Notes: a model not told the origin generated them from the sequence alone. DNA of 64,000 bases from Oligoflexia bacterium (GCA_028277945.1 JANQFH010000008.1:195442-259441); one strand, 5' to 3'; positions 27,818-44,740 are shown, counted from the first letter of the stretch. Made by a program: numbers and translations.

Positions 27818-27922
27818 CTACGACCCGGTAGGTATGCTAGCTAACTTAGCACCTAGCACACGGTGTGATTGAAAAGAGAAATTGAAGGAAACTGTCTTTT
27901 TACTTTCGTTGCTTTTTGCCAT
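27818..27922 (-). CDS. candidate precursor/signal peptide, 34 aa (cassette B); not in ORF track
   Basis: Minus-strand ATG at 27922-27920. Translation checked codon by codon: MAKSNESKKTVSFNFSFQSHRVLGAKLASIPTGS*. RBS AGGAG at 27934-27930, 7 nt before the ATG. The stop is 38 nt upstream of the HExxH start. Confidence 0.5.
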   Translation of the reverse strand: MAKSNESKKTVSFNFSFQSHRVLGAKLASIPTGS

Positions 27923-29207: not shown

Positions 29208-31196
29208 ATGCCCCGAAGATTTAACTATAACTTTTCTGGCTGGCTGAAGAAGTATTTCATTCCTCTTTTTATCTTCCTATTAAGCCTTACCACGGTCTTC
29301 AGCTTTTACCTTCTCAGTTCTCCCTCTGATCAAAAAACTGTCTTCAGCATTGTAGACCGCTCCCTCTACCACTCCTTTTTATTGCCAACAACTACCCAAG
29401 AGCTCTCTAGCAACGCCCCCATAACTATCGTCGCCATAGACGACGAAGATCTAGAGCGTTATGGCTCTTGGCCTTGGTCACGAGCGCTCTTAGCCAACGG
29501 TATCGAGGCGATTAATCGTTACGATCCAGCCCTGGTTGGGTTCTCTATCCTCATTGATCCTTTGCGCACGGTGGCCCCTTCAGAGAACGCAGCGCTATTC
29601 AAAGAACTCGCTGCCACTAAACACTTGGTTACTGCCTTTAACTTCAACTTCTCTCAACGCTTTCAAATAGGCACTGAAGAAGTCAGCTGGATCGCCAAGG
29701 CCGCTTTAGATGATCGACCAACTACAGAGGTCTCTGTCTTTCCCTATCAGCGTCCATTTAGCTTTCATGCTGCTGCACCTGAAGTCGTCAACGCCTCTGC
29801 CAACATGGGCTTTCTCAGCTACGCCAACTCTAAGGGACTTCTAGTCTACCCAACACTCTCTTACTTTGGCAGTCACTTCTACAAATCCTATCCGTTGGCA
29901 ATCGCGCAGAGTTTTAAACAGCAACAAACCCCAACAAAACTCTCCATCTTACGTAATAGAGAAGGTGTAGAGGGTTTGGAGTTTGGTAACCACACCCTGC
30001 CTACCCTTAACAACGGTACCATTCTATTGAGACCCTACAAGAAGCTCTCCCAAAGGAACGACCGTGCCTTTCCACAACTACGCTTTCGTGATCTTTTAGA
30101 AGGCAAAATACAACCGCACAAGTTGCGCGATAAGATCGTCCTGGTTGATCTAACTGCTTCAGGTTACTCACAGTCCTTCAACGTTCTCGATGGTGGTTTG
30201 GCCTCGAGACCAGTGATCCATGCCACTGCTGTGGCCAACCTGTTGCAAAACGACTTTATCCGTCGCGATGGGCGGGCCACGCTGCTAGAGACCCTATTGA
30301 TTCTCCTGGTAACCCTCTTGGTTTGGTGGTGCTCACGTAACCTCAAGGCAGTTACGGCAGTATTTGCCATCTGCCTTACGATTCCAGCTACCTTGCTCCT
30401 CATTGCATTAGCTGCGATCCACTTTGCCAACCTCTGGTTGCTGATCTCCTATCCATTAGCAGCACTGCTGATCTCCTTTCCCCTGCAGTTTGGCTACAAA
30501 CACTTTGTTGAAGATCGCCAGCGTCGCATAGTCGAGCGAGCACTCACAGGTTACACCTCAAAAACCGTGATGGACCGCTTGATTGAGAGAGGAGAGAGCT
30601 TTTTAACCTTAGGGGGTGAACGCCGTGATCTCACTATCTTGTTGTTCGATATCAAGGGTTTTACCCAACTATCCCACCGTCTGACCCCTGAAGAGACCTT
30701 TAAGCTGTTAAACCACATCTTTAAGCTTACGGATGAGATCATTATCGATCGCTTCAATGGAATGATTGATAAAAAGATGGGTGATGCTTGCATAGCTCTC
30801 TTTGGTCTTGATGGTGGCAAGGAGCATGCTCTGCATGCTGTGCAGGCAGCGCTGGCTATACAGGAGACTTTGTTTGAGCGCTTTGCTGAGCTCTCTCGCT
30901 TGGCTCACAAACAGGAGCTGGGTCCAGGTTGTATCCAGATCCGCGTTGGCATCACCACCGGTACCGTACTCCTTGGCAATGTCGGCTCTGAGCGACACAA
31001 GAACTTTACGGCCGTGGGTGAGATCGTCAACCAATGCCAACGCCTTGAGGCAGCTTGCAGTCTAGGTGAAGTGTTGATCAGTGAGGAGACCTACAGACGT
31101 TTAGGTGACCAAGTCAGGGTTGAGAAGAAGCAAGCACCCGGCAAACGAGAGGAAGAGTCTTATCTCGCTTACCGGGTACTGGGTTTAGCACATTAA
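29208..31196 (+). CDS. CHASE2 sensor domain-containing class III adenylate/guanylate cyclase
   Basis: N-terminal TM segment, then ITIVAIDDEDLERYGSWPWSRALLA (CHASE2-like). This is followed by three or more TM helices and a cyclase core RDLTILLFDIKGFTQLS .. KKMGDACIALFG .. RVGITTGTVLLGNVGS. Confidence 0.85.
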   Translation: MPRRFNYNFSGWLKKYFIPLFIFLLSLTTVFSFYLLSSPSDQKTVFSIVDRSLYHSFLLPTTTQELSSNAPITIVAIDDEDLERYGSWPWSRALLANGIEAINRYDPALVGFSILIDPLRTVAPSENAALFKELAATKHLVTAFNFNFSQRFQIGTEEVSWIAKAALDDRPTTEVSVFPYQRPFSFHAAAPEVVNASANMGFLSYANSKGLLVYPTLSYFGSHFYKSYPLAIAQSFKQQQTPTKLSILRNREGVEGLEFGNHTLPTLNNGTILLRPYKKLSQRNDRAFPQLRFRDLLEGKIQPHKLRDKIVLVDLTASGYSQSFNVLDGGLASRPVIHATAVANLLQNDFIRRDGRATLLETLLILLVTLLVWWCSRNLKAVTAVFAICLTIPATLLLIALAAIHFANLWLLISYPLAALLISFPLQFGYKHFVEDRQRRIVERALTGYTSKTVMDRLIERGESFLTLGGERRDLTILLFDIKGFTQLSHRLTPEETFKLLNHIFKLTDEIIIDRFNGMIDKKMGDACIALFGLDGGKEHALHAVQAALAIQETLFERFAELSRLAHKQELGPGCIQIRVGITTGTVLLGNVGSERHKNFTAVGEIVNQCQRLEAACSLGEVLISEETYRRLGDQVRVEKKQAPGKREEESYLAYRVLGLAH

Positions 31197-33940
31197 GGCA
31201 AATTGGGATCAATTGTAAACGTTCCCTGGGTGGTCTCCTCTAAGCCATTGTCATACAAGACCGTGGCGCTGACGTTAATTGGTTGGTCCTGCGCGGTGAT
31301 AGGTTGCGACACGTCACCAATAAGAGCACGGTTGTAGAGTTTAACGGTATGGGGTGAATTGGGCTGCAACATACCCTGGGTACCATCACCCCAATCAATG
31401 TTGACGCTGACAATATCAAGCGTTGGGTTAAGCAGTTCAGACATACTTGCATCCACAAAGAGCCACATTGGGTCTTTAAAAGGCACGGCTGAAGCGCGTA
31501 GGACAAAACCATTCTGAGGTGTTGATGGAGGAGGATCATCCGGTGGCTTGATCATTGCTTTGGTCACGAGGTAGCCAGGGCCACGTTTTCCATCGGCCAG
31601 GGAGTTTAATTCTAGGATGACCGTATCGCTGTCTGTGGCTGCATCCAGAGGTATAGTAACAGTGACTCCTTGTAGCTCGGTGTTTTTGTAGGTGTTGACA
31701 ACGGTTTCAATAGTACCGGTGGTGTCCAGCTTGATAATGGTGAGTGTGTCTTGATTGCCGGTATCGTCAAAGAAGAAGCGAGTTAGGTTATCAAAGGTGA
31801 GCATCATGCCCCCTGCAGCTGCAGCTCCAACCACGGTCTTTTTCTGTCTGAATTTATCCACCAAATCAGGGTAGGGACGTGGGGATTCAAGGTTGGACCC
31901 ATCATCTGCTGATTCAACAAAGCCTGGTGGGTTGGTAAAGCTGCCAACGCCTCGGGAAGCAAAGGCCTGTTGGATATCTTGGCTGTGCAGGCCACCAAAC
32001 ATCAGTTGATCAGTTGCTTGTAAGATGGTGGGAACATCGGGCAATCCATCCAATGAGGTGAAGCTAGCAACAGATTCTTGCATGATTAGGTAGGCTAAAT
32101 CGCCACGCATTTTGCTCCATTCCCAACCGGCAGAAGAACAAATCCGACTATCTTCGTGTTTTTCGCCAACAATGTCATCAGGAAAGGTAAGGGTGTTGTC
32201 GACGTTGCGGATGAACTGGAAACCAAAGTTCTTTGCATAGTACGGAGCAATTTCCGGGAATTTCAACATCAACGCAGAGTTTAGATCAGCAAAGCACTCG
32301 TCAATCAGCTCGTTGGCCGGGCCGCCAGTAAACGGGTAAATACCACCACCACGTACATGGTTAGCCCAGTGCTGCCACTCATGATATCCTACACTAGCGT
32401 CCCTCGATCCTTCAAACGAAGGACCGGCATCAAAGATTACCTTGCCAGTAATCGAATCATAAAAGTTTCCGAATGCACTCAAATTGATAGCCTCTGCTAG
32501 AGCGGCTCCTGGTAGGCCTGGGGGGTGGTCTAGAGGACCTGAGAATAAGTCGTCTAAGCTGAGGAGCTCAAAGGCATGTCCTTGGTCTGTGAGCCAACCG
32601 AGCACATTCACTTCAAGAGCGTGCAGTTTGTCAAGCGGAGAGCCAGCAGTCAAATAGCCGGTAAAATCGAGATCAGCTTCAAAAGCACGTTCAAACGGAG
32701 GCTCAACGATCGTTTTGACAAAATTGTTTTGTAGAAAACCCGTACCATCCACAAAGATCGGCTTGCCAAAATGAGTATGGTCTCCATCGGGATCTTGAAC
32801 ATCACCAATACCCACAGCCGCTATCAAAGGATTTTTCACTCCAAGAATGTCGCCATTTTCTGCATCAAAATATACTATCCGCTTGGTTTCTCTGTAGACT
32901 CGTTTACCATCATCGAGAGTTCTAGAATAGGCAAAGTCTGCATGTCTGCCGTTGTCTACGAAGTGTCCCTCTACCACAGCCTTGTCAACCACCTTGGGTG
33001 TAGTCTGAGCGGCATCTTTTTCTATTATGGCTCTGCCATCGTGAAGGATATTAGTATTAGCAACCTTGTCGGCATTGTAGGTAGTCTCTACGAGAATGCC
33101 CTTATCCATAATCTCGATGGATTCAATTTCCATCACGACGCCAACGGTTTTTGGAACACGTCTAGAGGTGTAATAGGTCTCTAACACATCGAGCTGTGCG
33201 CCTTGCCATCTGCTAATAATCTCTCGTTCACTCAACCACTCACTCGAGTCGACTGTTTCCTCAGGACGCGGGTTATCAAGCATTTGTATGGCTACTTGGG
33301 TAAGCGTGCCGGCGTTGGCTTGCCCGCTACCAACCAATTCAGTAGATCTCTGTCCACTAAAGAGATTTCCACCTGAGCTTTTTACCAAGGGTAGGGCCTT
33401 TTGCTCTCCTGGCTGTAGTGCCAATCGTTCAACGATCAACTTGGCGATCTCTTCAGGATCTTCTGGCTTCTCTATAGGAGGCTCATAGGCTGAGAAGAGC
33501 ACCTTCACCAGGCCACCAAAGACTGGCAGCTCTCCTAGCTTTTGTTTAAAGATAACCACGGTTGTGCGCTTTCCAGGCACGATTGTGGGGTCTTCTAGCT
33601 CATCGACACTTATTTCTAGCTCGGCGGCATTAGCCCGCAGAAACTCTAGGGCAAAGTCTTCGTAGTCTTCATTACTGTAGTGACTCTGACTACCCAATTG
33701 GTTGGCTAACGAGTGCCCTCGGATACCATAGACACGCTTAATACGGGTATAGTTAGGGTGGTTGGTATTTTCTTGCCAGGTCTCACCACTATATAATTGA
33801 TAGTAGCGAAGATCTTCAGAAGGCGCTGCAACCAGTTGTTGCTGGGTGACGACTCCCAAGAAAAGCAGTGGCAGGAGCAAACTCCCTGCCTTGACTAGAA
33901 AAGTTCTAGGACGACTGAGGCTCATGTCACTATCCTCCAT
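31193..33940 (-). CDS. large secreted metalloprotease-like protein (propeptide-like N-terminus, HExxH, C-terminal PKD-like domain)
   Basis: Signal peptide. FTP-propeptide-like ALEFLRANAAELEI..TTVVIFKQKLGELPVFGGLVKV. HExxH in GYHEWQHWANH. C-terminal IDWGDGTQG resembles a PKD repeat. Confidence 0.5.
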   Translation of the reverse strand: MEDSDMSLSRPRTFLVKAGSLLLPLLFLGVVTQQQLVAAPSEDLRYYQLYSGETWQENTNHPNYTRIKRVYGIRGHSLANQLGSQSHYSNEDYEDFALEFLRANAAELEISVDELEDPTIVPGKRTTVVIFKQKLGELPVFGGLVKVLFSAYEPPIEKPEDPEEIAKLIVERLALQPGEQKALPLVKSSGGNLFSGQRSTELVGSGQANAGTLTQVAIQMLDNPRPEETVDSSEWLSEREIISRWQGAQLDVLETYYTSRRVPKTVGVVMEIESIEIMDKGILVETTYNADKVANTNILHDGRAIIEKDAAQTTPKVVDKAVVEGHFVDNGRHADFAYSRTLDDGKRVYRETKRIVYFDAENGDILGVKNPLIAAVGIGDVQDPDGDHTHFGKPIFVDGTGFLQNNFVKTIVEPPFERAFEADLDFTGYLTAGSPLDKLHALEVNVLGWLTDQGHAFELLSLDDLFSGPLDHPPGLPGAALAEAINLSAFGNFYDSITGKVIFDAGPSFEGSRDASVGYHEWQHWANHVRGGGIYPFTGGPANELIDECFADLNSALMLKFPEIAPYYAKNFGFQFIRNVDNTLTFPDDIVGEKHEDSRICSSAGWEWSKMRGDLAYLIMQESVASFTSLDGLPDVPTILQATDQLMFGGLHSQDIQQAFASRGVGSFTNPPGFVESADDGSNLESPRPYPDLVDKFRQKKTVVGAAAAGGMMLTFDNLTRFFFDDTGNQDTLTIIKLDTTGTIETVVNTYKNTELQGVTVTIPLDAATDSDTVILELNSLADGKRGPGYLVTKAMIKPPDDPPPSTPQNGFVLRASAVPFKDPMWLFVDASMSELLNPTLDIVSVNIDWGDGTQGMLQPNSPHTVKLYNRALIGDVSQPITAQDQPINVSATVLYDNGLEETTQGTFTIDPNLP

Positions 33941-34453: not shown

Positions 34454-35638
34454 ATGAATAAAGAAAAGACGATTAAGAGCTCTCTTTTCAATGGATTTTC
34501 TCTCCAGGCCTTTATCTCCTCCACTCCAAGCATTGTGACGGTTGCGATTATTCCATTTATCGTTAAACACCTCGGTTTAGCATATATATGGATCGGAGTT
34601 ATTTTTTTTCTATTACGAGTGGGTCTAATAAGCGGTCGGTTTATCGGTCCGTTCTTTCTAAAATGGCTAAAACCACATTACCTCTGTGCTATTTTTGAGC
34701 TAAAGAATTTTTTCTTGATTACCATTATCTGGTTTTATTTCGACAGGATACCTTCTTCCCTCTTTGCTATTCTTTGGCTGCTAAAAGGAATCATCATTGG
34801 AGCCATATCAACCCTGGTATTTTCTTGGCTGCGTCATCTATCCGACGTCAGTAAGACCAAGCGAACGTTAATTACGGTTATGGCTATTATACAGTCTAGC
34901 TATGGTGTAGCAGGAGTTATCATTCTTACTACAACTCCTGATATAAATCTTATCAAGAATATCTTGTTAATTGATGCGCTGTCATCCTGTGTAGGACTAG
35001 TTACATTTTTGAATCTTAGGCGTTTTCGGGCTAAGGACACAGGTCGTGGAAACGCATTCTCCATATTTAAATTTCCATTTCTCAATAGAGAACGCGTCAT
35101 TCTTCTTATTGTGGATATTTTGGTAGCGGCAGGTCTTGGCGGTGCAAATATTCTACTAGTGAAGTATGGTGAAATGTACTTTTCTACCATAGGCGGATAT
35201 GGCACGACGCTTGTCGTATATGCGATAGCTTTTCTAATCGTTGGCTTTCTATTTAATATAGAACAGTCAGATACAGATCTCATTATTCGTAGACTGACGA
35301 TGCTTTGCGTGCCTCTAATGTGGGCAGGGTTGGTTGTTTTGGCTATCGCATCAGATAAGTCTTTGTTAGGTATTGCTGGATTTTCACTAGTCTATTTAAA
35401 CTTACCTATTTTCTTTTTAAGAATACAGGCGAAATGGTTCACGTTAAGTACCCCTGAAGAAGCGGCTAAGATATTCGCTTACAGAAGTTTACTTGTAGAT
35501 GTTGTTAGTGCTGTCGGTGAAGTGGTCTACGGTAGTATTAAAGAAGATATTCTGATAAGAATTACTCTCTTAACTCTTGCTATTATTCTTGGAATTGCTT
35601 TCCGAAATATGATCTTTCCTCACACACAACAATCATGA
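34454..35638 (+). CDS. polytopic membrane protein, MFS-like transporter (convergent with cassette C)
   Basis: 10-12 hydrophobic helices over 394 aa. MFS motifs are weak, so the family assignment is tentative. Confidence 0.5.
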   Translation: MNKEKTIKSSLFNGFSLQAFISSTPSIVTVAIIPFIVKHLGLAYIWIGVIFFLLRVGLISGRFIGPFFLKWLKPHYLCAIFELKNFFLITIIWFYFDRIPSSLFAILWLLKGIIIGAISTLVFSWLRHLSDVSKTKRTLITVMAIIQSSYGVAGVIILTTTPDINLIKNILLIDALSSCVGLVTFLNLRRFRAKDTGRGNAFSIFKFPFLNRERVILLIVDILVAAGLGGANILLVKYGEMYFSTIGGYGTTLVVYAIAFLIVGFLFNIEQSDTDLIIRRLTMLCVPLMWAGLVVLAIASDKSLLGIAGFSLVYLNLPIFFLRIQAKWFTLSTPEEAAKIFAYRSLLVDVVSAVGEVVYGSIKEDILIRITLLTLAIILGIAFRNMIFPHTQQS

Positions 35639-35657: not shown

Positions 35658-37532
35658 CTAGGCACTATATCTCGCCAGTGATGATTGATTGTTCAATTCG
35701 GGCATTACTAGTAGCGGCACAGTATTCGCCAGCATTTTAGGTAGTAATTTCACTTTCCACTTAGTACATAATTCTTGAATTTCCATTTCTTCAAAGCGAG
35801 AAGTTACAAGTATTGATTGTTGCTCCAGCCTGTATTCCTTGATCAAATCCAATCCGGTTTTTTTACTTCCTAGCAATTCATAGTCAAAAAGATAAATTGA
35901 TGGTCCCTGTTCTTTATGTTGTGCTAGATAGCTTGATGCATCGGTATAATTAGACAAATCAACTTGATTAATGGAATGTAGATATTTCAGCGGGCCAAGC
36001 CGGTTTGTCCACACGTGGTGGATAAATATATCGTCGTCAAGTACTACAAAGTCACTATTTGGCTTTATATGAATTTTTGGAACATACCAATTTGGTGGAG
36101 GAGCCTTGGGAACTATCATCTTCACATTCGTTCCCATGTTTTGCCGTGAGTCTATTGTTAGTTCTCCATGCCAACGTCCTAAGGAGCTCTTCGCATAGTA
36201 TAAGCCTAGTCCTAATCCATGTTTCTTGTTAGCAGTCACACCTCTCTCTGTCGCTTTTTTAAGCAGTTCCTCTGACATGCCGCATCCATTATCCGAGACT
36301 TCAATACAAAAATTGTCTCCGGAACAATTGCATAGTCGTATACTAACTTCACCATTATTTGGAATAGCTTCCACGGCGTTATTAATAAGGTTCGAGAGAA
36401 TTCTTTTGAACTCGACAATCTCGACCTTCGCAAAGATACTATAGGCTTCTTCCGTAAAAACTGTATTAATCTTTATATCCTTACGTCCTGAAAACTGAAT
36501 CCTCTTTTCGGACACAAGAGTTTCTATAAGCACGGCGATCTGCTGAGTACTTACACGTTCGAAGTGAGTGTTGTCTAAATGGCGGGCATCCTGATCTGAG
36601 TAATAGGTATTGTCATTCCAAAGTAGCTGACGATGCTTTTCTACTAAGCTATTAGCAATATCCTGAATACGTGTGGCCGCTTGTCGCAAAAGAACACGTT
36701 GTTCTTCAGGGATATCACTAGAAGACTTGCCCAACATCTGCAAAGCAGTCAACGGTGATCTGATATCATGGGCCACTCTTGAGGCAATCTCGCCCATTGC
36801 GGCCTTCTTTGTTGCTCGTACTAGAACAGCTTGGGCTGTTTCTAATTCTTTTACCAATTTTCGAGTATTTTTGTATAATTCATTAATCTCCTTTATGTTT
36901 GAAAATCGTACTTCTTGAGAATTCTCAAATAGAGACCTTAGTCCATGTTGCGAAAGTCGTCTAGATAGATGCACTATCGGCCAAGTAATTTTTTTTCCTA
37001 TAACCCCTCCTATCCAGACGAATATAATAAATAGGGAAACAAGGGCTATTACGAGCACTACTAACGCTCGATAAACAGATCGTGATAATAGTTGTTGTGA
37101 AAAAACAATCTGGATCGTTGCTGCCATTTCTTTGCTAGTTTGATCAAAGTAGACATGAGAGGTAATAACTTCAGTTGAGGAGATTCCCTCACGTTTGGTG
37201 GTACTGCAGATTGAAAAATTTTGACTGTCAACAACACTTATACCCAAAATTGACCGGTCACGTAAAAGTATTTTACATTTTCTGTAGACTTCCGCATGGG
37301 CTCCTATAAGAAGACTGTGGCTTATGTCCTCGGTAAAGATGTTTACGATAGATTGGAACTTTGCTTGAAGCTCCTCCTCTGCACTCTTCTTTATCAAGTA
37401 GAGTGCCAATGCCCCACTAAGTACGACAGTTGCCGCCGTTATGACGGCTGAGGGAACGAACATAGCCCTGCCTAATGTCCACCTAAATCTCATTGTCTTT
37501 AGCCCACTGTAGTCGGTAGAGAGGAAAGTCAA
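35658..37532 (-). CDS. hybrid sensor histidine kinase (cassette C)
   Basis: Two TM segments. H-box VAHDIRSPLTAL. N-box NLINNAVEAI. G-boxes DNGCGM and HGLGLGL. Receiver-like C-terminus (FVVLDDD .. IYLFDYEL .. ILVTSR .. LPK). The start could be MRFRW (37493). Confidence 0.85.
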   Translation of the reverse strand: MTFLSTDYSGLKTMRFRWTLGRAMFVPSAVITAATVVLSGALALYLIKKSAEEELQAKFQSIVNIFTEDISHSLLIGAHAEVYRKCKILLRDRSILGISVVDSQNFSICSTTKREGISSTEVITSHVYFDQTSKEMAATIQIVFSQQLLSRSVYRALVVLVIALVSLFIIFVWIGGVIGKKITWPIVHLSRRLSQHGLRSLFENSQEVRFSNIKEINELYKNTRKLVKELETAQAVLVRATKKAAMGEIASRVAHDIRSPLTALQMLGKSSSDIPEEQRVLLRQAATRIQDIANSLVEKHRQLLWNDNTYYSDQDARHLDNTHFERVSTQQIAVLIETLVSEKRIQFSGRKDIKINTVFTEEAYSIFAKVEIVEFKRILSNLINNAVEAIPNNGEVSIRLCNCSGDNFCIEVSDNGCGMSEELLKKATERGVTANKKHGLGLGLYYAKSSLGRWHGELTIDSRQNMGTNVKMIVPKAPPPNWYVPKIHIKPNSDFVVLDDDIFIHHVWTNRLGPLKYLHSINQVDLSNYTDASSYLAQHKEQGPSIYLFDYELLGSKKTGLDLIKEYRLEQQSILVTSRFEEMEIQELCTKWKVKLLPKMLANTVPLLVMPELNNQSSLARYSA

Positions 37533-39042
37533 ATTGGTAGCGTTTTTCCGGGACTTTAATATGTTTGTGGTAAATTACCGGAGTATAAAGATGAAATAAT
37601 GGAACGATAAATGACTTTTCCTCAAACTCAATCATTAGATCAGTGTATTTTTCTAATCTCCGTATACGGTCAGATATGAAACTGATTTCATCAGCACCCT
37701 TTAAAAGCTTCGTTGTGGGGAAATTGCCAAATTGGATTGGATTTTTGGCTCGAAACAAGTCTAGGAAGCCATCTGGGTCTGGTATGACTCCAAAATAACC
37801 TACCATAATCAAATCGTAATCTTTGCTTTTTAGAAGAGGTATAACCTCTTCAATATTTTTGAACTCTATAATCGGGATCATACCTACGTTGGTCAACACT
37901 TCACTGATAGCCTTACCTACAGGTATGTTTAAATATTCTTTCCTCAAAACTATTCTAAGCTTTTTATGTTTTACTTTATTTTTCCAGAGCTTTTTGAAAC
38001 TGATCGGACTCATACGGCGAAAGTCACGTTCGTAGTATCTTCTTAGAAGAACGCCATGTGGTAAAAAATGCTTCTGATGGTCTATAAAGAAACCGGGTTT
38101 CTCTATCTGGGAAACTCGAGTTTTTATTAGCGCCGCAATATCTCTTCTAAAACTTTCATTACTTAGTGCTGGATTGTCAGTGTTTGTATATAGATGTAGG
38201 ATGCCCAGTCCTCCTAGACGGAGTAACTGATAATTATTTGGTAGTGTTCCCGGTTGTAATCCTGGATCAGCAAAGCCTAATGCGAAGTCAATCGAGTCAT
38301 TCCGTAATTGTGATAGTAGTTGATTTGCGCTTTCTACCCGTCGAAACGAAAGCCTGGATATATGGCTATCATTGGGAACGAACGGAACCATCTGCAGACG
38401 ATTTGGCAGTTGTACTGAGTCCAGAGAAAAAGAGCCAGACCCCACTACCTGAGAAGAACTACCAGAGGACTTTTTAGTTACACCGTAACCAGGTACTGCT
38501 AACAATTCTAACAGATACGGATACGGACGCTTGAGGCTTAGAATAATCGTGTGCTGATTCGGAGTGATAATTCCCGATGGTATTTGTCCATCTTTCAGGT
38601 TTTCGGCACCTACCACGATACGACCTAGATAGCTGGATATTTGCGTCATACTACCTTGCCATAAATGGCGTGACAGACTAAAGGCGATATCTTTACTCGT
38701 AATGAGCGCACCATCATGGAACCGAGCATGACGATCCAGATGAAAGCTATAACGTCTTCCATCTGAAGATATCTTCCAGCGCCTTGCAAGATCAGCTGTA
38801 ATACGATTTTCTTTGTCTAACTTTACTAGAGTGCGTAAGTATGGTCTAAGAAGGTCAGAATGTACGTAATGCCACGCATCTATTGGATCCAGAGAGCTGG
38901 GCAAAATAGGCAACGCTATCTCAAAGCTGTTGGTTGTCTTACGGTACTTCTGTTTAGATGATGCTGCATAAGTATGAAAGACAAATGAAAATAAAAGAAA
39001 GTGCAACAGGCACGCCTTCATCAAAATGTGAATGAGTTTCAC
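37483..39042 (-). CDS. periplasmic solute-binding protein, family 5 (cassette C)
   Basis: Signal peptide LLHFLLFSFVFHTYA. Signature region LARRWKISSDGRRYSFHLDRHARFHDGALITSKDIAFSLSR. The 3' end overlaps the HK ORF. Confidence 0.85.
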   Translation of the reverse strand: MKLIHILMKACLLHFLLFSFVFHTYAASSKQKYRKTTNSFEIALPILPSSLDPIDAWHYVHSDLLRPYLRTLVKLDKENRITADLARRWKISSDGRRYSFHLDRHARFHDGALITSKDIAFSLSRHLWQGSMTQISSYLGRIVVGAENLKDGQIPSGIITPNQHTIILSLKRPYPYLLELLAVPGYGVTKKSSGSSSQVVGSGSFSLDSVQLPNRLQMVPFVPNDSHISRLSFRRVESANQLLSQLRNDSIDFALGFADPGLQPGTLPNNYQLLRLGGLGILHLYTNTDNPALSNESFRRDIAALIKTRVSQIEKPGFFIDHQKHFLPHGVLLRRYYERDFRRMSPISFKKLWKNKVKHKKLRIVLRKEYLNIPVGKAISEVLTNVGMIPIIEFKNIEEVIPLLKSKDYDLIMVGYFGVIPDPDGFLDLFRAKNPIQFGNFPTTKLLKGADEISFISDRIRRLEKYTDLMIEFEEKSFIVPLFHLYTPVIYHKHIKVPEKRYQFDFPLYRLQWAKDNEI

Positions 39043-40130
39043 TGCGTACTCCGGTCACAGTAGATCTCAATATCATTCTGTTTTATCAGTATATGTTTTT
39101 GTGTATACGTTACTTCTACGCCTTTATGGTGTGCTTTGTAATCATATCTATAATGACCATCGAAATATCGGCATATTTGTAACGGCCCTGATTTTTTTAG
39201 TAGGTCTGTCACCCCCAATTGTAGAGGATTTTTATTTCCCGAACGTGATGACGAGGCCATCTCCTGAAACGGATGCAATTTTGAATCAATTCGCTTAGGT
39301 ACATTAGGATGAGCGTAATAAAATATTTCTCTGTCACCGCACTTCCTAAAGTAATAGGGAATGTCACCTCGTTCTAATTGTTCTAGCTCACTAGGTAGAA
39401 ATTCGTTCCCGTTTAAATTATTCGCCTTCTTTGTCAAGAAGGAATGATAATCTCTTGTAGACCGAGGAATGACCCGAATCGGATTTTGCATGAATCCATC
39501 AATGGAAGCAAAAAGATTCGCTGTGAGTTCTGTTACTGATGAGAGAAAGTTCAATGCGTCAAAAAAACCAAAGCAAATTGCAGCAACGCCACTGTGGGAT
39601 CTATCCAACTCTCGAAAGTTATTTAATAGGTGGGAGAGTCCTGAATCTTCAAATGTCAATGCAGGGGAAGGTATGAGTGCTGTTTCAGAGAGAAGTGTGT
39701 GATCTTCAAAGATACATTCTATATCGATAGGGCTGAATATGATACTGCCAGCAGAAGTCTTGCCAAGCAATACATTGGCACGGTGCAGATCTCCAATTCC
39801 GAACCAAGTAATAAGTGCGATGGTACGGCCAATATCTTCTAATACTTCTAAATCTAGATCTTTGGAAATGAGAGGTTTAAGTAGGAGTTCCTCTACTCTG
39901 CCAAAACATTTTTCACCAGGAGATGACATTTCGACATATAGTTTTGGTAAAGATCTTCCTGGGTATACAAATCCCCTTTTCTTAGCTTCAGATTCTAATA
40001 AAGATGTTAAGGGACTTAATCGAGATAAGAAGAGGTATTCCCAAAATACAGTTCTAGGCTTGCAAATCCTTTGGGTACCATCACGACAAACTCGCTGTCC
40101 AAAATTGTGAGGGTCGCCTAACGGTTGCAT
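39039..40130 (-). CDS. stand-alone kinase-like protein resembling the LanM N-terminal (DUF4135-type) domain
   Basis: WFGIGDLHRANVLLGKTSAGSIIFSPIDIECIF contains a D-x-H-x-x-N catalytic-loop pattern followed by (I)D.E. As I recall, this is how class II lanthipeptide synthetase kinase domains read. No LanC-like cyclase domain is attached. Overlaps the SBP start by 4 nt. Confidence 0.45.
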   Translation of the reverse strand: MQPLGDPHNFGQRVCRDGTQRICKPRTVFWEYLFLSRLSPLTSLLESEAKKRGFVYPGRSLPKLYVEMSSPGEKCFGRVEELLLKPLISKDLDLEVLEDIGRTIALITWFGIGDLHRANVLLGKTSAGSIIFSPIDIECIFEDHTLLSETALIPSPALTFEDSGLSHLLNNFRELDRSHSGVAAICFGFFDALNFLSSVTELTANLFASIDGFMQNPIRVIPRSTRDYHSFLTKKANNLNGNEFLPSELEQLERGDIPYYFRKCGDREIFYYAHPNVPKRIDSKLHPFQEMASSSRSGNKNPLQLGVTDLLKKSGPLQICRYFDGHYRYDYKAHHKGVEVTYTQKHILIKQNDIEIYCDRSTQ

Positions 40131-40174
40131 ATGCCTCCCATCAGTCTATGCGGGTAGAGAAAGGGGAGGCTTAC

Positions 40175-40258
40175 CTAGATCCCTACAGTCACGCCACGTA
40201 TTACGACAATCTTCTCCAATTTATCTAAATCTATGTATTCTCGTCTTCTTTTTTTCAT
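40175..40258 (-). CDS. candidate precursor/signal peptide, 27 aa (cassette C); not in ORF track
   Basis: Minus-strand ATG at 40258-40256. Translation checked codon by codon: MKKRRREYIDLDKLEKIVVIRGVTVGI*. RBS AGGAG at 40269-40265, 6 nt before the ATG. The stop is 44 nt upstream of the kinase-like gene. Confidence 0.45.
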   Translation of the reverse strand: MKKRRREYIDLDKLEKIVVIRGVTVGI

Positions 40259-40350
40259 GATTTACTCCTATTTAGGTTATATCCACCAATTTTTCAAGCT
40301 CTTATTTGATATCCTTAAAGCTTAGGATGCACCCTATCCTAATTTATTTC

Positions 40351-40367
40351 TGCAAGGAACGTGCTAA
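40351..40367 (-). promoter_or_regulatory. near-consensus sigma-54-like motif (AG instead of GG at -24) upstream of short ORF 40258
   Basis: Minus strand TAGCACgttccTTGCA versus consensus TGGCAC-N5-TTGCA. About 93 nt upstream of the ATG, similar to the cassette B spacing. The G-to-A change in the normally invariant GG lowers confidence. Confidence 0.3.
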
Positions 40368-40413
40368 CAAAAAAGTTAATGATTTTAAAAGATTGGGTTC
40401 TTCAGGAAAGAGT

Positions 40414-40434
40414 ATTGTTGGTTTTTGCAACAAT
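40414..40434. promoter_or_regulatory. 7-bp-arm palindrome, candidate activator/repressor site upstream of cassette C
   Basis: ATTGTTGgtttttgCAACAAT. It lies about 50-60 nt upstream (minus sense) of the sigma-54-like motif. A second palindrome, TTAGGATgcaccctATCCTAA, is at 40322-40342. Confidence 0.3.
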
Positions 40435-41050: not shown

Positions 41051-41116
41051 ATTCCTATTGAAGTAGTTGGGCATAAATTACGTTAGTGGTTTTAACAAAT
41101 ACTAGTTAAGGTCTTG

Positions 41117-42331
41117 ATGTTTAGATTCTATTTCAACTCTTTTCGAGGTTTACCCAGGGCGGGAGTGTTGCTTTCATTGGCTGCATTGATAAACCGTCTT
41201 GGAAGTGTGGTGTTGTTTTTCTTTGCGATCTATTTAACGAAAAATAATTGGAGCGTATTTGATATTGGGAAGGTTCTATCAGCCTATAGTTTTGGCTATG
41301 CAGGTGGGGCTTATCTTGGTGGTCGTCTTAGTGATCGTTATGATAGCCGTTTTATACTTATAATTACACTAATGGGTTCTGGCTTATGTTTCTTCGGACT
41401 TTCTATAGCGGATTCTTTTACACCTGTTATTCTTTTACTTTCTATGGCTGGCATTTTGGAAGGTGCCTTTAAACCAGCATACAATGTTACAATGACCCGA
41501 TGTTGTACCCAGGACGAGTGGTCACGTGCTTATGCACTGTATATGACCACGACTTATTTAGGAGGAGCTATAGCTTCAATGGCAGGTGGATTTTTGTCCA
41601 AATGGAACTTTAGCTACATTTTTTATTTTGATGGTGTAACGTGTATCATTGCAGCGGTTTTTGTGTGTATTGTTTTCGATCGGCTAACCCGTTCAGTGGA
41701 AGCAGAGAAAGAGCAAATCACCGATGAGTTCAGTCTATCTAAAAATACACCTCCATCTTCTCTAGTTATTTGGATAATTTTTGTATCCATGTTTTTTGTC
41801 TATCTTGTTGATCAACAGGAGTCTGGAAGCTATATGATTCATATTACAAAACAGTATGGTATTGATACTCACCAGGTAGGTATGTTGATTGCTTTTGGCT
41901 GTGTACTTATGGCACTGACCACTGTACCTTTGACTCAGTTTTTCAAACGCATTCCGGATTTTATCGCGATGACTTTAGGATCTTTGATTCTTTGCCTGTC
42001 CTTTGGTCTTTTGAATCAGGGTGATAGTTTTGCCTTTCTTTTCTTGTTGATGGCTATGTGGTCCTTGGGCAGCATCATATCATTTCCGACCGTAGTGAGC
42101 CTCATTGGTAAGTACTCAACAAAGGAAAGGGTTGGACATAACATGGGAATTTACCATTTCATCTCTGGCTTAAGCAGAATCGTCGCGCCCTCTCTTGGTA
42201 CCTATGTCTATCAAAACTTGGGTCCGAATATCTTGTGGAGTGCTTGCACTGCTATTGGTGTTTTCAGTGGTGTATCCTTCCTTCTCATTTATCGTTTTAG
42301 TTTAAGGTCAATTCACTCCAGAGAAGCATGA
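41117..42331 (+). CDS. MFS transporter (cassette E)
   Basis: ATG at 41117. MFS motif-A-like LGGRLSDRYDSRFILII. 12 hydrophobic helices. Its stop overlaps the next start (ATGA). Confidence 0.8.
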   Translation: MFRFYFNSFRGLPRAGVLLSLAALINRLGSVVLFFFAIYLTKNNWSVFDIGKVLSAYSFGYAGGAYLGGRLSDRYDSRFILIITLMGSGLCFFGLSIADSFTPVILLLSMAGILEGAFKPAYNVTMTRCCTQDEWSRAYALYMTTTYLGGAIASMAGGFLSKWNFSYIFYFDGVTCIIAAVFVCIVFDRLTRSVEAEKEQITDEFSLSKNTPPSSLVIWIIFVSMFFVYLVDQQESGSYMIHITKQYGIDTHQVGMLIAFGCVLMALTTVPLTQFFKRIPDFIAMTLGSLILCLSFGLLNQGDSFAFLFLLMAMWSLGSIISFPTVVSLIGKYSTKERVGHNMGIYHFISGLSRIVAPSLGTYVYQNLGPNILWSACTAIGVFSGVSFLLIYRFSLRSIHSREA

Positions 42332-43131
42332 AACTGATCGAAAGAGATGTAGCTTTAATCAACCATGAATATTACATCGATGGAATTGCTGGCAGTCAGT
42401 ATACATCGAGACAGGTGTTTACGTGCCGAGGTAAACTATTTGTTGTGATTGATGAATTGTGTGTCGATAAGTTACATGATATAGCGGTTAACTACGTTGG
42501 CCAATATAGTACTAAGAGTATAGTGTGTCTTTGCTCACATTTACGTGTTAGACAAATTAGTGAAATGTGGGAAAAGACAAGTTCAAAATTCTATTCGTGG
42601 TTTGGTTTTACGTTTGATCCGGCATTGTCCCGGTTCGACTTTGCTTACTCGAAAAGTGCACTAGAGGGATTCGACGTATCGGTCGGTATGCCAATTAGTA
42701 AGGTTGAAAAGGAAACACTGTTAAAATTGTGGCAAAAACACTATATTGAAAAGGTTCTCCTAGGTTATCCGGAGAAAATAAGGCATCGTTATCTTGAAGA
42801 ATTTCAACAAAGATTGGGTTCTGATAATGAAAATCGGCATACCATAGTTCGGCAGGATAGTGAGATTGTGGCCCATCAGATGCTACGAAGACTTTTTACG
42901 GAGCAAAGAAACTGTTGGGATAAAGAGTTGCACTTTTGGGTCGATGGACAGCTGAATAAGTCGATTCGACGAGAAATTCATCGACGGTTTTGGTATGAAG
43001 TACATGAGGCATCGAGAAAACATATGGTGCTTGGTGGTGTTGCGAGTAATAATATATCGAGTATCAAACATCTCATTAAAAATGGTGGCCGATTACTTTT
43101 TATTCAATACATAGGGTTATCGTCTTACTAG
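42328..43131 (+). CDS. cytoplasmic protein of unknown function, translationally coupled to the MFS gene (cassette E)
   Basis: ORF track. No signal peptide and no motif I can name with confidence. The C-terminal half is vaguely acyltransferase-like (..LGGVASNNISSIKHLIKNGGRL..). Confidence 0.55.
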   Translation: MKLIERDVALINHEYYIDGIAGSQYTSRQVFTCRGKLFVVIDELCVDKLHDIAVNYVGQYSTKSIVCLCSHLRVRQISEMWEKTSSKFYSWFGFTFDPALSRFDFAYSKSALEGFDVSVGMPISKVEKETLLKLWQKHYIEKVLLGYPEKIRHRYLEEFQQRLGSDNENRHTIVRQDSEIVAHQMLRRLFTEQRNCWDKELHFWVDGQLNKSIRREIHRRFWYEVHEASRKHMVLGGVASNNISSIKHLIKNGGRLLFIQYIGLSSY

Positions 43132-43254
43132 TGGTCTGACATATCTTGGTTGTCACCCTACAAACTACACATAGATTGTGTCAAAATTGAACAGTTTGTT
43201 TGAAATGGAGACAGTAACAAACCAAGTAAAAACTAACTGATTTTATGCCTGTGT

Positions 43255-43343
43255 AACCTTGACGGATTTAAGCGATCAGGGTAAGCATTTATAATTAGAC
43301 GAGATTATAAATGAGCTTAGAAAGGGAAGCGCAATGCGGAGTT
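43255..43343 (+). repeat. about 90-nt repeat, copy 1 (copy 2 at 47261..47352)
   Basis: The shared ends AACCTTGACGGATTTAA and GATTATAAAT.AGCTT.GAAAGG.AA..GCAATGCGGAGTT flank a diverged middle. The repeat includes the ATG (MRS..) of the SBP ORF. Confidence 0.6.
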
Positions 43344-44740
43344 CAAAAATTGGTATGACAAACGTTCCAAGTGACCTTGATCCATTGAAGGCACGATATG
43401 CTTACGACCTGATGATGAACGCATGCGTTTTTTCGCGACTTGTACAGCTTGATGGTAATGGTCAGGTGGTGTCAGAGCTTGCGTCCAGTTGGAAGGTTAG
43501 TGATGCAGGAGATGAGTATACCTTTACCTTGAATTCGGACGCGAGATTTCATGATGGGTCACCAGTAACAGCTCGAGATGTTGTCTATACCTTCGAAAGG
43601 ATCTTGAAGTCAGATCGGCCACCTGCTTCGATTCTTCGTCTAGCATTAGATCCTTCCTTTCGTTCGGATGAGGATTGTCCGGTAAAGGCAGTGAACGATC
43701 GTCAGGTCAAATTTCATTTACCTGGTGCGTACCCGCCATTTCTGTCTCTGCTTTGTAATCCTGTTTTTGGAATAGTTGCTCAGGATAGTGATGGTAAGAT
43801 TGGCTCTGGTCCAATGGTGCTGGAGGCTGACGAGCATAGTAAGACATTGAAGTTTAAACCCTTCCAGGAAGGCGCCGGTCTCGGCGAGTTTTATGTAAAG
43901 CAGATCTCCCGTGACAGCTTACCGGAAGTTATTGCCGAAGATGAACTAGATCTGATTTTTGGGCTCAATTCAATAGATTTTCAGAACGTAATCCGCATAG
44001 ACCCATACAAGGTCGTCAGAGGCCATGATTCGTTTGTCGCTCACTTTTTATGCAATACCAAAAGTCCAGTACTAGATTCTTTAGAGAGGCGACGTAATCT
44101 AAGCTATTTGATCAATTCGCTTTCAGATGAAGTGAGCAATTTAGCAGAATATCAAAAACCGCTGAAAAGTTTTCTACCAAGTGGGTTGTTGTCGCCATCT
44201 TATTACCAGAGAGCAACATCGCCTGTATCCGAGGATGCCTTTAGTGCAAAAAACAGCCAATTCAAAGCCCAACCGCTGCGTATCGTGGTTCAGAAAGGTA
44301 TTTTTTCTCAGAGTTATATGAGTGCGCTAGGTTCTCTAATAGAAAGGCTAGGTATGGTACCTGATATTCAACTAGTGGATTCAGACGCATTATGGAACCG
44401 CTATGCAAAGGATGATTATGATCTTATATCTTTTAGTTACAGTTTGGCGATTCCCGACGATCCAGATGGCTACCTATGGCCCTTCGACAATAAGGAGCTC
44501 GGCATTGATAATCGGTTTCCTATGAGCTCTTTTCTTCAGAAGATTGAAAAGGTCCGTTTTACGTCGAACCAGAAAGAGAGACTCGAGCTCTATGAACGTG
44601 AGTTCAAGCAGTTTGAACAGGAACATTACTTTATTCCAGTGCTTCAACATGACCATCTTATTGCTTTTAAAAACCGGAGCGAAATACCGACTTTAAAGCC
44701 TACATTCCTTTATCGATTGTCTGATTTTATCAGACCTTAG
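43334..44740 (+). CDS. family-5 solute-binding protein lacking a signal peptide (possibly truncated/inactive) (cassette E)
   Basis: It aligns with the cassette B SBP from ..LKIGVSILPQTLDPMK (here MRSSKIGMTNVPSDLDPLK) onward, so the leader peptide is missing. The new 5' end is supplied by the 90-nt repeat. The rest is intact (..ASSWKVSDAGDEYTFTLNSDARFHDGSPVTARDVVYTFER..). Confidence 0.75.
   Translation: MRSSKIGMTNVPSDLDPLKARYAYDLMMNACVFSRLVQLDGNGQVVSELASSWKVSDAGDEYTFTLNSDARFHDGSPVTARDVVYTFERILKSDRPPASILRLALDPSFRSDEDCPVKAVNDRQVKFHLPGAYPPFLSLLCNPVFGIVAQDSDGKIGSGPMVLEADEHSKTLKFKPFQEGAGLGEFYVKQISRDSLPEVIAEDELDLIFGLNSIDFQNVIRIDPYKVVRGHDSFVAHFLCNTKSPVLDSLERRRNLSYLINSLSDEVSNLAEYQKPLKSFLPSGLLSPSYYQRATSPVSEDAFSAKNSQFKAQPLRIVVQKGIFSQSYMSALGSLIERLGMVPDIQLVDSDALWNRYAKDDYDLISFSYSLAIPDDPDGYLWPFDNKELGIDNRFPMSSFLQKIEKVRFTSNQKERLELYEREFKQFEQEHYFIPVLQHDHLIAFKNRSEIPTLKPTFLYRLSDFIRP

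Follow-up and report, generated by a model that had tools for sequence, protein, structure and literature searches.

What does a stand-alone LanM-type enzyme do between a 27-aa ORF and the genes of a binding protein and a sensor kinase? The window, that is, the whole 64,000-nt stretch of Oligoflexia bacterium DNA analyzed here, contains four SBP_bac_5 genes that are paralogs of one another. Three of these are paired with a kinase gene, the kinases likewise being paralogs, and each set adjoins a different tailoring enzyme. The tailoring position is occupied by a minimal LanM dehydratase, a YcaO-like protein or an aKG-HExxH hydroxylase-like protein. The LanM-type enzyme belongs to cassette C; the YcaO-like genes of the window sit in other cassettes. 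The genes of cassette C and of the membrane protein next to it are as follows.

34454..35638, plus strand: uncharacterized polytopic membrane protein, 394 aa, about 10-12 TM segments; candidate exporter
35658..37532, minus strand: hybrid sensor histidine kinase, 624 aa, with two TM segments, periplasmic loop, HisKA, HATPase_c and receiver-like C-terminus
37483..39042, minus strand: orphan family-5 solute-binding protein, 519 aa, with N-terminal signal peptide (Pfam SBP_bac_5, 3e-31)
39039..40130, minus strand: stand-alone minimal LanM-type (DUF4135) Ser/Thr kinase-dehydratase, 363 aa, ATG start
40175..40258, minus strand: precursor peptide gene, 27 aa, MKKRRREYIDLDKLEKIVVIRGVTVGI, from the ORF list and homologous small ORFs
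40265..40269, minus strand: Shine-Dalgarno sequence AGGAG, 6 nt 5' of the precursor ATG, read directly from the sequence

Across 12 loci, conservation is confined to the genes for the peptide, the enzyme, the binding protein and the kinase, and the stop codon of one often overlaps the start codon of the next. Genes for a putative signal, its maturation enzyme and a receptor thus stand in one unit at 12 syntenic loci, and the association recurs in seven further metagenomic loci. In cassette C, the binding-protein and kinase genes lie on the same strand as the enzyme gene, with ends that overlap or abut their neighbors, and the binding-protein start overlaps the enzyme stop by 4 nt. The four-gene module was seen only in Bdellovibrionota, the phylum to which the window is assigned by its nearest relatives. 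The preliminary description of the locus had read the enzyme as a swap peculiar to one genome; the stand-alone LanM-like enzyme is indeed present in cassette C, but the module recurs in Bdellovibrionota and the enzyme is therefore not a one-off. The module neighborhood shows no conserved ABC permease or ATPase. The conserved content of the module itself includes neither a leader protease or double-Gly site nor an Hpt protein or DNA-binding response regulator; a sigma-54-type regulator lies near the module in a single locus (L090). We found no description in the literature of stand-alone DUF4135 proteins or of this four-gene unit, which looks like an undescribed modified-peptide signaling circuit recurring across predatory Bdellovibrionota.

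The ORF at 40258-40175, with its AGGAG and single Thr, is present as first described and has homologs at 18 loci. Two of its elements are central to what follows.

40214..40234, minus strand: leader-type recognition motif I9-D-L-D-K-L-E15, with Tyr8 before it, from cross-locus conservation and positional specificity
40187..40189, minus strand: codon of Thr24, the predicted modification site and sole Ser/Thr of the peptide, from the conserved register

The length of 27 aa is firm because an in-frame TAA stop lies two codons 5' of the ATG. The peptide contains one Thr (T24), no Ser and no Cys, and so lacks the Cys partners that (methyl)lanthionine rings require in a substrate core; nor does it have a GG, GA or GS site ahead of a core, as a leader of the double-Gly type would. 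No NCBIfam family matched the precursors.

At 18 distinct loci, a small ORF adjoins the enzyme gene: in 17 of them it lies immediately upstream and runs in the same direction, and at the remaining one (L089) the two genes converge. These peptides share a common design, [FY]xx-[IV]-D-[LM]-x-x-[LIV]-E followed by a Ser/Thr at +7 to +9, with the distance from the motif Glu being exactly +9 in 13 of the 18 loci and +7 or +8 in the rest. The single Thr that had been proposed as the target from the window alone falls on this conserved Ser/Thr site. Given the same C-terminal design in small ORFs at 18 distinct loci, the 27-aa ORF is, on grounds of sequence conservation, real. For the specificity of the motif, taken in the form [IVLMY][DS][LIM]xx[LIV]E, we scanned a pattern consisting of the motif, the Ser/Thr and the stop. 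It occurs 12 times per 480,516 six-frame residues in the 16 module-bearing sources, always in the ORF directly 5' of the enzyme gene and with no off-target match, and once per 1,731,218 residues in 69 control loci.

These numbers bear on the possibility that the enzyme modifies a protein, such as the binding protein or the kinase, or a small molecule, and that the short ORF is a regulatory leader or spurious. A Myxococcota clade of the enzyme keeps every catalytic residue, and at its 69 loci neither the peptide motif nor the binding-protein and kinase genes are found nearby (ORF clustering in Myxococcota was swamped by high-GC shadow ORFs). Thus, the enzyme family can act on other substrates and its fold is not tied to peptide-signal use. 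Against such a substrate in the module, however, the motif and the Ser/Thr register are kept at the protein level though the DNA of the loci has diverged, their position is fixed relative to the enzyme gene, and background matches are absent. In addition, the precursors vary freely in their N-terminal parts (22 to 126 aa, some with a signal peptide and some lacking one) but retain the C-terminal 20-25 residues, which is the pattern of a substrate and not of a regulatory uORF. We therefore regard another substrate as highly improbable here and favor the peptide. The 18 loci have the makeup of a RiPP unit, with an adjacent short precursor gene whose product keeps its recognition segment and target residue and varies elsewhere, and the IDLxxLE-type motif resembles ELXXBX, the leader motif of class II lanthipeptides (PMC11877530). 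Two variant precursors end in S-M-I-C and T-M-W-C, the Ser/Thr-x-x-Cys spacing of lanthionine rings.

The enzyme had been assigned to the kinase-like domain of LanMs from a DxHxxN loop plus a downstream Asp. Both are present, in residues 111-122 (GIGDLHRANVLL) and 134-138 (PIDIE), and align residue for residue with CylM D347/H349/N352 and D364. A Pfam search agrees with the proposed DUF4135 domain (score 39.7 bits, gathering score 29, E 4.3e-10), with the match to PF13575 limited to enzyme residues 182-260 and profile positions 274-375. The NCBIfam LanM model, TIGR03897, gave 27.4 bits against a cutoff of 304. The absence of a LanC-like cyclase holds: LANC_like is missing from the enzyme and from the 41 window ORFs of at least 150 aa that were scanned, and the enzyme stops after the dehydratase core without a C-terminal LanC-like zinc-dependent cyclase domain. 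As a single sequence, the enzyme matched no PDB sequence, and LanMs were reached only by family profile and fold comparison. With the family profile, the N-terminal catalytic motifs align as well, both to LicM2 (E 4.9e-7) and to CylM, and the AF2 model (pLDDT 88.8) shows the same lipid-kinase-like fold as LanM dehydratase domains. Neither a signal peptide nor a TM segment is predicted in the 363 aa of the enzyme. The family comprises 387 clusters at 50% identity. Its catalytic positions, placed by profile alignment, are listed below.

40107..40115, minus strand: P-loop D6-P-H8 of GDPHNFG, equivalent to CylM D252/H254 (phosphate elimination); D in 83/85 and H in 85/85 family members
40059..40061, minus strand: Lys24 of KPR, equivalent to CylM K274 (gamma-phosphate activation); 85/85 family members
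39774..39791, minus strand: catalytic loop D114-L-H116-R-A-N119, equivalent to CylM D347/H349/N352
39723..39725, minus strand: Asp136 of PIDIE, equivalent to CylM D364 (metal ligand); 85/85 family members
39456..39476, minus strand: R219-V-I-P-R-S-T225, equivalent to CylM R506/T512 (phosphate elimination); R in 85/85 members, T in 84/85 and Ser in one

All nine CylM catalytic residues (K274, D347, H349, N352, D364, D252, H254, R506 and T512; roles as assigned in PMC4550811) are identical in the enzyme, and the nine positions are conserved in 83-85 of the 85 family members. At the last of the sites listed, the alignment pairs the family segment IRVilRsTreY with vRNVIRPTQRY of CylM.

Because the elimination residues D6, H8, R219 and T225 are conserved along with those for phosphotransfer, dehydrobutyrine is a likelier product than a stable phospho-Thr, and the enzyme would be better named a minimal LanM dehydratase than a kinase. 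If it instead stopped after phosphorylating Thr24, the reading that the preliminary description put first, the signal or product would be a phospho-threonine peptide, for which the kinase fold and the five conserved phosphotransfer residues would be in place. The alignment to CylM starts at CylM residue 249 (enzyme residue 4), so that the N-terminal ~248 residues of CylM, comprising the capping helices (Leu5-Asn131 plus the insert Ile180-Tyr200; PMC4550811) and most of the N-lobe, are absent from the enzyme, and the insert between D136 and R219 is about 80 residues long compared with about 140 in CylM. Either the loss of these ~250 residues or the shortened insert could impair elimination, and the conservation of R219 and T225 could instead reflect structural roles. 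We nevertheless consider an enzyme that only phosphorylates unlikely: the four residues whose CylM counterparts are needed for elimination or speed it are kept in 83-85 of 85 relatives, the CylM T512A substitution abolishes phosphate elimination (PMC4550811), the S-M-I-C and T-M-W-C precursor ends make sense only after dehydration, and a phospho-ester would presumably face periplasmic phosphatases. To judge from the sequence, the most likely product at Thr24 is dehydrobutyrine, or at a minimum phospho-Thr.

Known LanMs (CylM, LicM2 and LctM) are about 900-1000 aa long and carry capping helices, which in LanMs are implicated in leader binding, a longer kinase-activation insert and a LanC-like zinc cyclase; the 363-aa enzyme lacks these or has them in shorter form. 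It thus falls short both of a full-length dehydratase domain with capping helices (about 600 aa) and of the TIGR03897 cutoff. The 27-mer differs from LanM systems in having no Cys, one target in a fixed register and neither a double-Gly site nor a peptidase-ABC exporter, and the module differs in its Gram-negative Bdellovibrionota host and in having a binding protein and a kinase as partners. CcaM/LanMbC of the dehydrazoles likewise uses DUF4135 for dehydro-amino acids that are not made into lanthionine (PMC10676384). However, CcaM is about 1015 aa long, requires a fused class III-type cyclase domain for activity, is leader-independent and acts only beside azoles installed by its YcaO partner (PMC10676384), whereas the enzyme has no fused domain and cassette C has no YcaO. 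The DUF4135 network of the dehydrazole study left out proteins shorter than 500 aa (PMC10676384), and the family of the enzyme was therefore outside its scope. Since lanthipeptide pipelines also seed on LanC, the family has escaped RiPP mining. The dehydratases of classes III, IV and V with split kinase and lyase functions (LanKC, LanL and LxmK/LxmY) use the same phosphorylation-then-elimination chemistry on Ser/Thr of ribosomal peptides, and in class V lanthipeptides the kinase is a separate protein, as the stand-alone enzyme is.

The other half of the module has the layout of a sensor. The binding protein has an N-terminal hydrophobic segment and gave weak NikA/CntA/OppA-type matches. The kinase shares 34-36% identity with the window's other two kinases. 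Its two TM segments, near residues 20-48 and 156-174, flank a ~107-aa periplasmic loop; its TTG start is uncertain, with the ATG at codon 14 as the alternative. It ends in a further domain.

35661..36065, minus strand: receiver-like domain at the C-terminus of the kinase, carrying DDD, D, T and K at canonical positions

In the alignment of this domain, D10, D11, D12, D61, T88 and K110 are invariant. Its profile matches the response-regulator structures 3lte (E 0.019) and 4mld (E 0.054), and the single-sequence Pfam match is weak (E 0.12). Thus, an orphan periplasmic binding protein is encoded together with a membrane kinase bearing a periplasmic loop, as in LuxP-LuxQ and TorT-TorS, which are binding-protein-dependent sensor kinases. 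NisA-NisK/R, Agr and ComX-ComP likewise hold a modified-peptide gene in one unit with a potential membrane sensor kinase. Unlike Gram-positive autoinduction or LuxPQ-type circuits, the module encodes no cognate response regulator. We know of no characterized diderm system in which a family-5 binding protein and a hybrid kinase read a RiPP-type modified peptide.

A peptide made in the cytoplasm would have to reach this sensor, and the predicted export routes differ by locus: a Sec signal peptide, the 394-aa membrane protein or an MFS-SBP fusion. Five types of precursor, from six loci of which L079 duplicates L051, bear Sec signal peptides, and an MFS transporter is fused to the binding protein in L086 and L087. 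Homologs of the 394-aa protein adjoin the module in L002, L059 and L088, which together with the window makes four loci, all with short precursors that have no signal peptide; judged by this co-occurrence only, the protein is a candidate exporter of the signal-less peptide. It matched no Pfam or NCBIfam family and showed no relation to MFS transporters by BLASTP or hhalign, and its assignment as an MFS transporter was rejected.

From the computed fold, family, catalytic-residue conservation, peptide design, synteny and predicted protein topologies, we infer how the enzyme and the peptide pair, the chemistry at Thr24, export, ligand recognition and signaling output. Cassette C would be a self-contained modified-peptide signaling module, a reading to which we give about an even chance. 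The 27-aa peptide would be translated in the cytoplasm, and its Y-I-D-L-D-K-L-E segment would serve as a leader-type docking motif for the 363-aa enzyme, in which the ATP-dependent kinase-like dehydratase domain known from class II lanthipeptide synthetases would stand alone and in minimal form. The fixed spacing would put Thr24, nine residues past the motif Glu, into the active site, where it would be phosphorylated and the phosphate then eliminated to leave dehydrobutyrine; no thioether ring would form because there is neither a cyclase nor a Cys. The modified peptide would pass to the periplasm or the cell exterior, in the window probably via the adjacent 394-aa candidate exporter and at other loci by means of the Sec signal peptide of the precursor or through an MFS transporter that forms one protein with the SBP. 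The orphan family-5 binding protein may then take up the modified peptide and switch the hybrid histidine kinase, which would start a phosphorelay. Cell-to-cell signaling is not a given, because Sec-type precursors would end in the producer's own periplasm, the home of the binding protein.

There is a further possibility for the same set of genes. The modified peptide could be an effector, such as an antimicrobial or a predation or competition factor, with the binding protein and the kinase sensing something else, for instance peptides from prey or the environment, or serving only as a sensor for lantibiotic-style autoregulation and immunity. The host phylum is predatory, lantibiotic clusters commonly include LanK/LanR sensors, and paralogous SBP_bac_5/kinase sets with different tailoring enzymes would also suit a regulated effector battery. 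However, the conserved part of the peptide extends only ~10-15 residues past the motif, would bear a single modification and lacks an amphipathic or cationic core, and the module contains no immunity or ABC-transporter genes. Moreover, the four-gene unit is compact and translationally coupled, and the MFS-SBP fusion in L086 ties export and reception of one molecule together. For these reasons, we judge an effector role to be improbable and prefer the signaling module.

Beyond cassette C, Bdellovibrionota may use modular RiPP-autoinducer circuits, in which a common chassis of SBP and hybrid kinase is combined with interchangeable tailoring enzymes and private modified-peptide signals; we put this forward tentatively, as a possibility somewhat short of probable. 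If true, such modular circuits would constitute peptide-based cell-cell or cell-envelope signaling in diderm predatory bacteria, and the enzyme would be the smallest known single-site LanM-type dehydratase, with a ruler-like register from leader to target. Modified-peptide signaling is textbook knowledge in Gram-positive bacteria and barely known in Gram-negative bacteria, and the module of peptide, enzyme, binding protein and kinase would offer a testable route to Bdellovibrionota communication or envelope monitoring. If the proposed chemistry is true, the 363-aa protein would (i) define a minimal LanM catalytic unit, with kinase and elimination sites and without capping helices or a cyclase, (ii) bear on how LanMs recognize leaders and (iii) provide a compact tool for placing a single dehydro-amino acid at a set distance from a short tag.

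Promoter, terminator and Rfam scans of the region found nothing, and the 850-bp upstream intergenic region holds no repeats or operators besides one hairpin.

40130..40173, minus strand: imperfect inverted repeat (hairpin) lying between precursor stop and enzyme start, with its 3' arm over the enzyme GGGAGG RBS

Its MFE is -18.9 kcal/mol, with a z-score of -2.2 against mononucleotide shuffles and of -0.76 against dinucleotide shuffles. Because it is not significant against the latter, the hairpin was set aside as a functional element of the enzyme RBS. Hairpins at the same position are stronger in L083, L085, L088 and L090.

Cassette C comprises four tightly packed genes, all on the window's minus strand:

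40258-40175, minus strand, peptide ORF of 27 codons; AGGAG 6 nt 5' of the ATG, in-frame stop two codons upstream
40130-39039, minus strand, enzyme ORF of 363 aa
39042-37483, minus strand, SBP_bac_5 protein; start overlaps the enzyme stop by 4 nt
37532-35658, minus strand, histidine kinase

The preliminary description had proposed a stand-alone LanM-kinase-like protein acting on a single-Thr 27-aa peptide, and the sequence features on which it drew are all present. The ORF behind AGGAG encodes MKKRRREYIDLDKLEKIVVIRGVTVGI, with one Thr (Thr24), zero Ser and zero Cys, and the enzyme carries GIGDLHRANVLL at residues 111-122 and PIDIE at residues 134-138. The claimed absence of a LanC-like cyclase was likewise borne out, as no LANC_like domain was found among the 41 window ORFs of at least 150 aa that were scanned.

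Pfam DUF4135 scored 39.7 bits versus a gathering score of 29, with the match confined to enzyme residues 182-260; the NCBIfam LanM model reached 27 bits, far under its cutoff of 304. Searching the PDB with the enzyme sequence alone gave no match. AlphaFold2 gave a confident model from the family alignment (pLDDT 88.8, pTM 0.91), for which Foldseek found significant PDB matches only with the LanM enzymes CylM (5dzt, E 1.5e-6) and LicM2 (6st5, E 2.8e-6); the suggested comparison with CylM thus produced a fold match, and computation supports this fold. Homology searching recovered 24 proteins, 207-388 aa long and none with extra domains (23 of them form alignment A1), and an exhaustive profile search (50%-identity clusters, E <= 1e-30) yielded 387 family representatives, the best 150 of which all measure 257-407 aa. 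The enzyme is therefore a member of a sizeable stand-alone family, and its reading as a truncated gene was rejected on these lengths. Neither a signal peptide nor a TM segment is predicted; for an ATP-dependent enzyme, a cytoplasmic location is expected.

We aligned the enzyme-family profile against CylM, the sequence of which came from the E. faecalis cytolysin plasmid (locus L081).

Table. CylM motifs and residues, with the matching positions of the window enzyme.
GDSHSRG, D252/H254: D6/H8 (GDPHNFG)
YKPK, K274: K24 (KPR)
TDLHYEN, D347/H349/N352: D114/H116/N119
IDNE, D364: D136 (IDIE)
vRNVIRPTQRY, R506/T512: R219/T225 (IRVIPRSTRDY)

In CylM, K274, D347, H349, N352 and D364 act in phosphorylation, and D252, H254, R506 and T512 in phosphate elimination, which T512A abolishes (PMC4550811). 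The DxHxxN loop and downstream Asp previously taken as DUF4135-like align with D347/H349/N352 and D364. Because the residues of both steps are conserved (catalytic positions identical in 83-85 of 85 aligned family members), the enzyme carries the full dehydration apparatus, which sharpens the earlier reading from a kinase to a putative full minimal dehydratase, supported to the extent that computation allows. On the chemistry, the chief rival holds that the product is a stable phospho-Thr, for which the phosphorylation residues are in place; the elimination residues, including T225 at the position of T512, are in place as well.

The putative dehydratase would work like the dehydratase half of LanM. 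Missing from it are the counterpart of CylM residues 1-248 (capping helices and much of the N-lobe) and the entire LanC-like cyclase, and the CylM D364-R506 insert is only partly represented. The enzyme does not qualify as a class II lanthipeptide synthetase: unlike these synthetases, it has no cyclase and no capping region and falls under the curated LanM cutoff, and unlike their substrates, the 27-mer has no Cys. CcaM, the dehydrazole enzyme, likewise relies on DUF4135 and makes no lanthionine, but its 1015 aa include a fused class III-type cyclase domain that is required, and it is azole-dependent and leader-independent (PMC10676384). The same study left out DUF4135 proteins <500 aa (PMC10676384), and large-scale mining for lanthipeptides that used LanC as its seed (PMC7268733) would miss a stand-alone DUF4135 family. 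We found no description of stand-alone ~350-aa DUF4135 proteins, or of the four-gene module, in the literature searched, which covered subscription journals incompletely.

Scanning one genome per species for enzyme relatives gave 134; of the 80 best, which were retained, 11 come from Bdellovibrionota (Bdellovibrionales, Bacteriovoracaceae, Pseudobdellovibrionaceae, Oligoflexia and the isolate Fluviispira multicolorata). A small ORF adjoins the enzyme gene in all 11 Bdellovibrionota loci and in seven further metagenomic loci, with its stop 3-120 nt 5' of the enzyme gene on the same strand; the sole exception, L089, is convergent. The N-terminal parts of these peptides are freely variable, and their C-terminal 20-25 residues share one design.

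Table. Peptide C-termini at the window and at homologous loci (L numbers). A slash closes the leader-type motif, and the Ser/Thr taken as target is bracketed; L079 is a copy of L051.
Window: EYIDLDKLE/KIVVIRGV[T]VGI
L001: EFEVIDLDSIE/ATTVISSS[T]VGTF
L026: KTFIDLDALE/KEMSHSGV[T]VSSG
L040: SEFIDLKSLE/KHLSHAER[T]LTSTKVE
L059: MDLDKLE/IKSFKFFG[T]VL
L088: EFVDMDLVE/AQAVVPSN[T]SV
L085: MIIDLDKIE/NESAPAIC[T]RTAPEN
L090: MVIDLDKIE/SESAPVLA[T]RTAPEN
L083: QIDIEDLE/STYVILHN[S]SI
L005: DPAKLE/KVLSRPNQ[T]MTSVVE
L068: DKKELE/KILARPSK[T]ITSL
L002: VEIEEVE/KEEVVGVD[T]I
L003: VIDLKTLE/YEARGPA[T]GITSG
L006: TIDLKKLE/LESKGPA[T]ITSG
L051/L079: SIDMDSLE/SEMKTVH[T]TDF
L086: VISLEAIE/TQAEAST[S]ETKTH
L082: YDLDGVE/LAGRPGS[S]DDSMIC
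L089: LDVDGFE/AERSEV[S]IPRTMWC

Computation supports both the conservation and the register of the peptides: counted from the motif Glu, the target Ser/Thr is at +9 in 13 of 18 loci, with +7 or +8 for the remaining five. A regular expression (motif, spacer, Ser/Thr, <=6 residues, stop) matched 12 times in 480,516 six-frame residues from 16 module-bearing sources, always at the enzyme-adjacent ORF, and once in 1,731,218 residues of 69 Myxococcota loci; it was composed post hoc from the first loci, and its informative part is the lack of off-target matches. The acidic-hydrophobic motif resembles ELXXBX, the leader motif of class II lanthipeptides (PMC11877530). These peptides have no double-Gly site after the motif and gave zero matches to NCBIfam models. 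Five precursor types of 85-126 aa (L003, L005, L026, L040, L051) bear typical Sec signal peptides; other precursors, that of the window among them, have 22-72 aa and no signal peptide.

Several precursors or their flanks show further features. In Fluviispira multicolorata (L059 7773-7991), five tandem MDLDKLEC units precede a final MDLDKLEIKSFKFFGTVL, which could reflect either a recognition motif expanded by repetition or a leader with several docking sites. In a variant sub-type (L082 2724-2948, L089 2634-2903), with a divergent binding-protein gene and an adjoining erythromycin-esterase-like gene, the precursors terminate in S-M-I-C and T-M-W-C, a Ser/Thr-x-x-Cys spacing that could permit a C-terminal (methyl)lanthionine ring without LanC. 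Stem-loops lie directly 3' of the precursor stop in L083 (perfect 13-bp stem, z -6.3), L085 (z -3.2) and L088 and L090 (11-12-bp stems); a window hairpin at 40130-40173 overlies the enzyme RBS and was not significant in a dinucleotide-shuffle test.

The 69 Myxococcota homologues (L004-L080, among the best 80 of 134) group as a single clade by neighbour joining; identity averages 62% among its members and 29% to module-type enzymes. They keep every catalytic residue, and no peptide, binding protein or kinase lies near the enzyme gene at the 69 loci. An rsmE-like gene precedes it in several inspected loci, and a DTW-domain gene follows it in L016.

The order enzyme, binding protein, kinase recurs in 11 of 11 Bdellovibrionota loci, and ORF clustering across 12 loci found only the four cassette genes conserved, with no conserved ABC permease/ATPase, protease, Hpt protein or DNA-binding regulator. 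Cassette C is a recurrent Bdellovibrionota module, not a single oddity. Predicted topology gives the binding protein a signal peptide and the kinase two TM segments flanking a ~107-residue loop. The family profile of the kinase C-terminal extension matches receiver domains (3lte, E 0.019), with DDD, D, T and K invariant at canonical positions.

We infer a circuit in which the leader-type motif (I9-D-L-D-K-L-E15 in the 27-mer) would dock onto the enzyme and present Thr24 in a fixed register; the enzyme would phosphorylate Thr24 and then eliminate the phosphate to give dehydrobutyrine, and the modified peptide, with any proteolysis, would reach the periplasm or medium, where the orphan binding protein would present it to the hybrid kinase. 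Sec-type precursors would place the product in the periplasm of the producer itself, so that in some lineages the circuit may be cell-autonomous. Clues to the export route vary from locus to locus: a 394-aa polytopic membrane protein (window 34454-35638), with no detectable relation to MFS proteins, has homologues adjoining the module in L002, L059 and L088, and the precursors of all four loci are short and signal-less. On the biology, the chief rival casts the peptide as an effector, with a sensor that only regulates it or senses something else. MFS_1 and SBP_bac_5 are fused in an 865-aa protein directly 3' of the enzyme gene in L086 (6045-8642) and L087 (2656-5253), which suggests that export and reception deal with one molecule. 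The sole output-regulator candidate observed near any locus is a sigma-54-dependent response regulator (Response_reg + Sigma54_activat) at L090 2205-3578, ~1.4 kb upstream of the module.

The window holds four paralogous SBP_bac_5 genes (26-42% identical), three of them paired with paralogous kinases (34-37% identical). The other sets, the "cassettes" of the preliminary description, each lie beside a different tailoring enzyme: YcaO-like, aKG-HExxH hydroxylase-like with MFS, or an unknown 267-aa protein with MFS.

3907-8248, minus strand, cassette A: SBP_bac_5 (6689-8248), YcaO-like (5737-6675), paralogous histidine kinase (3907-5727)
22314-27922, minus strand, cassette B: 34-aa ORF (27818-27922), enzyme (26946-27779), MFS transporter, SBP_bac_5, paralogous kinase
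41114-44740, plus strand, operon divergent from cassette C: MFS transporter, 267-aa protein, fourth SBP_bac_5

The short YcaO-like protein of cassette A matches Pfam YcaO (1e-15) and has a partial match of TOMM cyclodehydratase type; a 25-aa ORF upstream (8323-8400) ends in LCWLSC. Cassette B combines the same sensor chassis with a different tailoring enzyme, an aKG-HExxH peptide beta-hydroxylase-like protein (TIGR04267, 43.6 bits vs cutoff 40). The divergent operon may be another cassette: its SBP_bac_5 is 42% identical to that of cassette B, its 267-aa protein has no family match, and no kinase follows.

RiPP-type enzymes are unusually abundant in the window; at 12609-15888, an unknown 330-aa ORF comes before a second YcaO-like gene (13582-14607), and an MFS-like gene (14620-15888) is convergent with them. 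Minus-strand ORFs of 915 aa (31193-33940) and, consecutively, of 710, 398 and 522 aa (52634-57538) have no Pfam match. With SelB, the selenocysteine elongation factor (488-2617), a Fic-domain protein (9717-10907), a 594-aa protein whose C-terminal domain is RES (19139-20923), a CHASE2-adenylate/guanylate cyclase (29208-31196) and a HipA-family kinase (50651-51907), the region resembles an accessory island of signalling and toxin genes.
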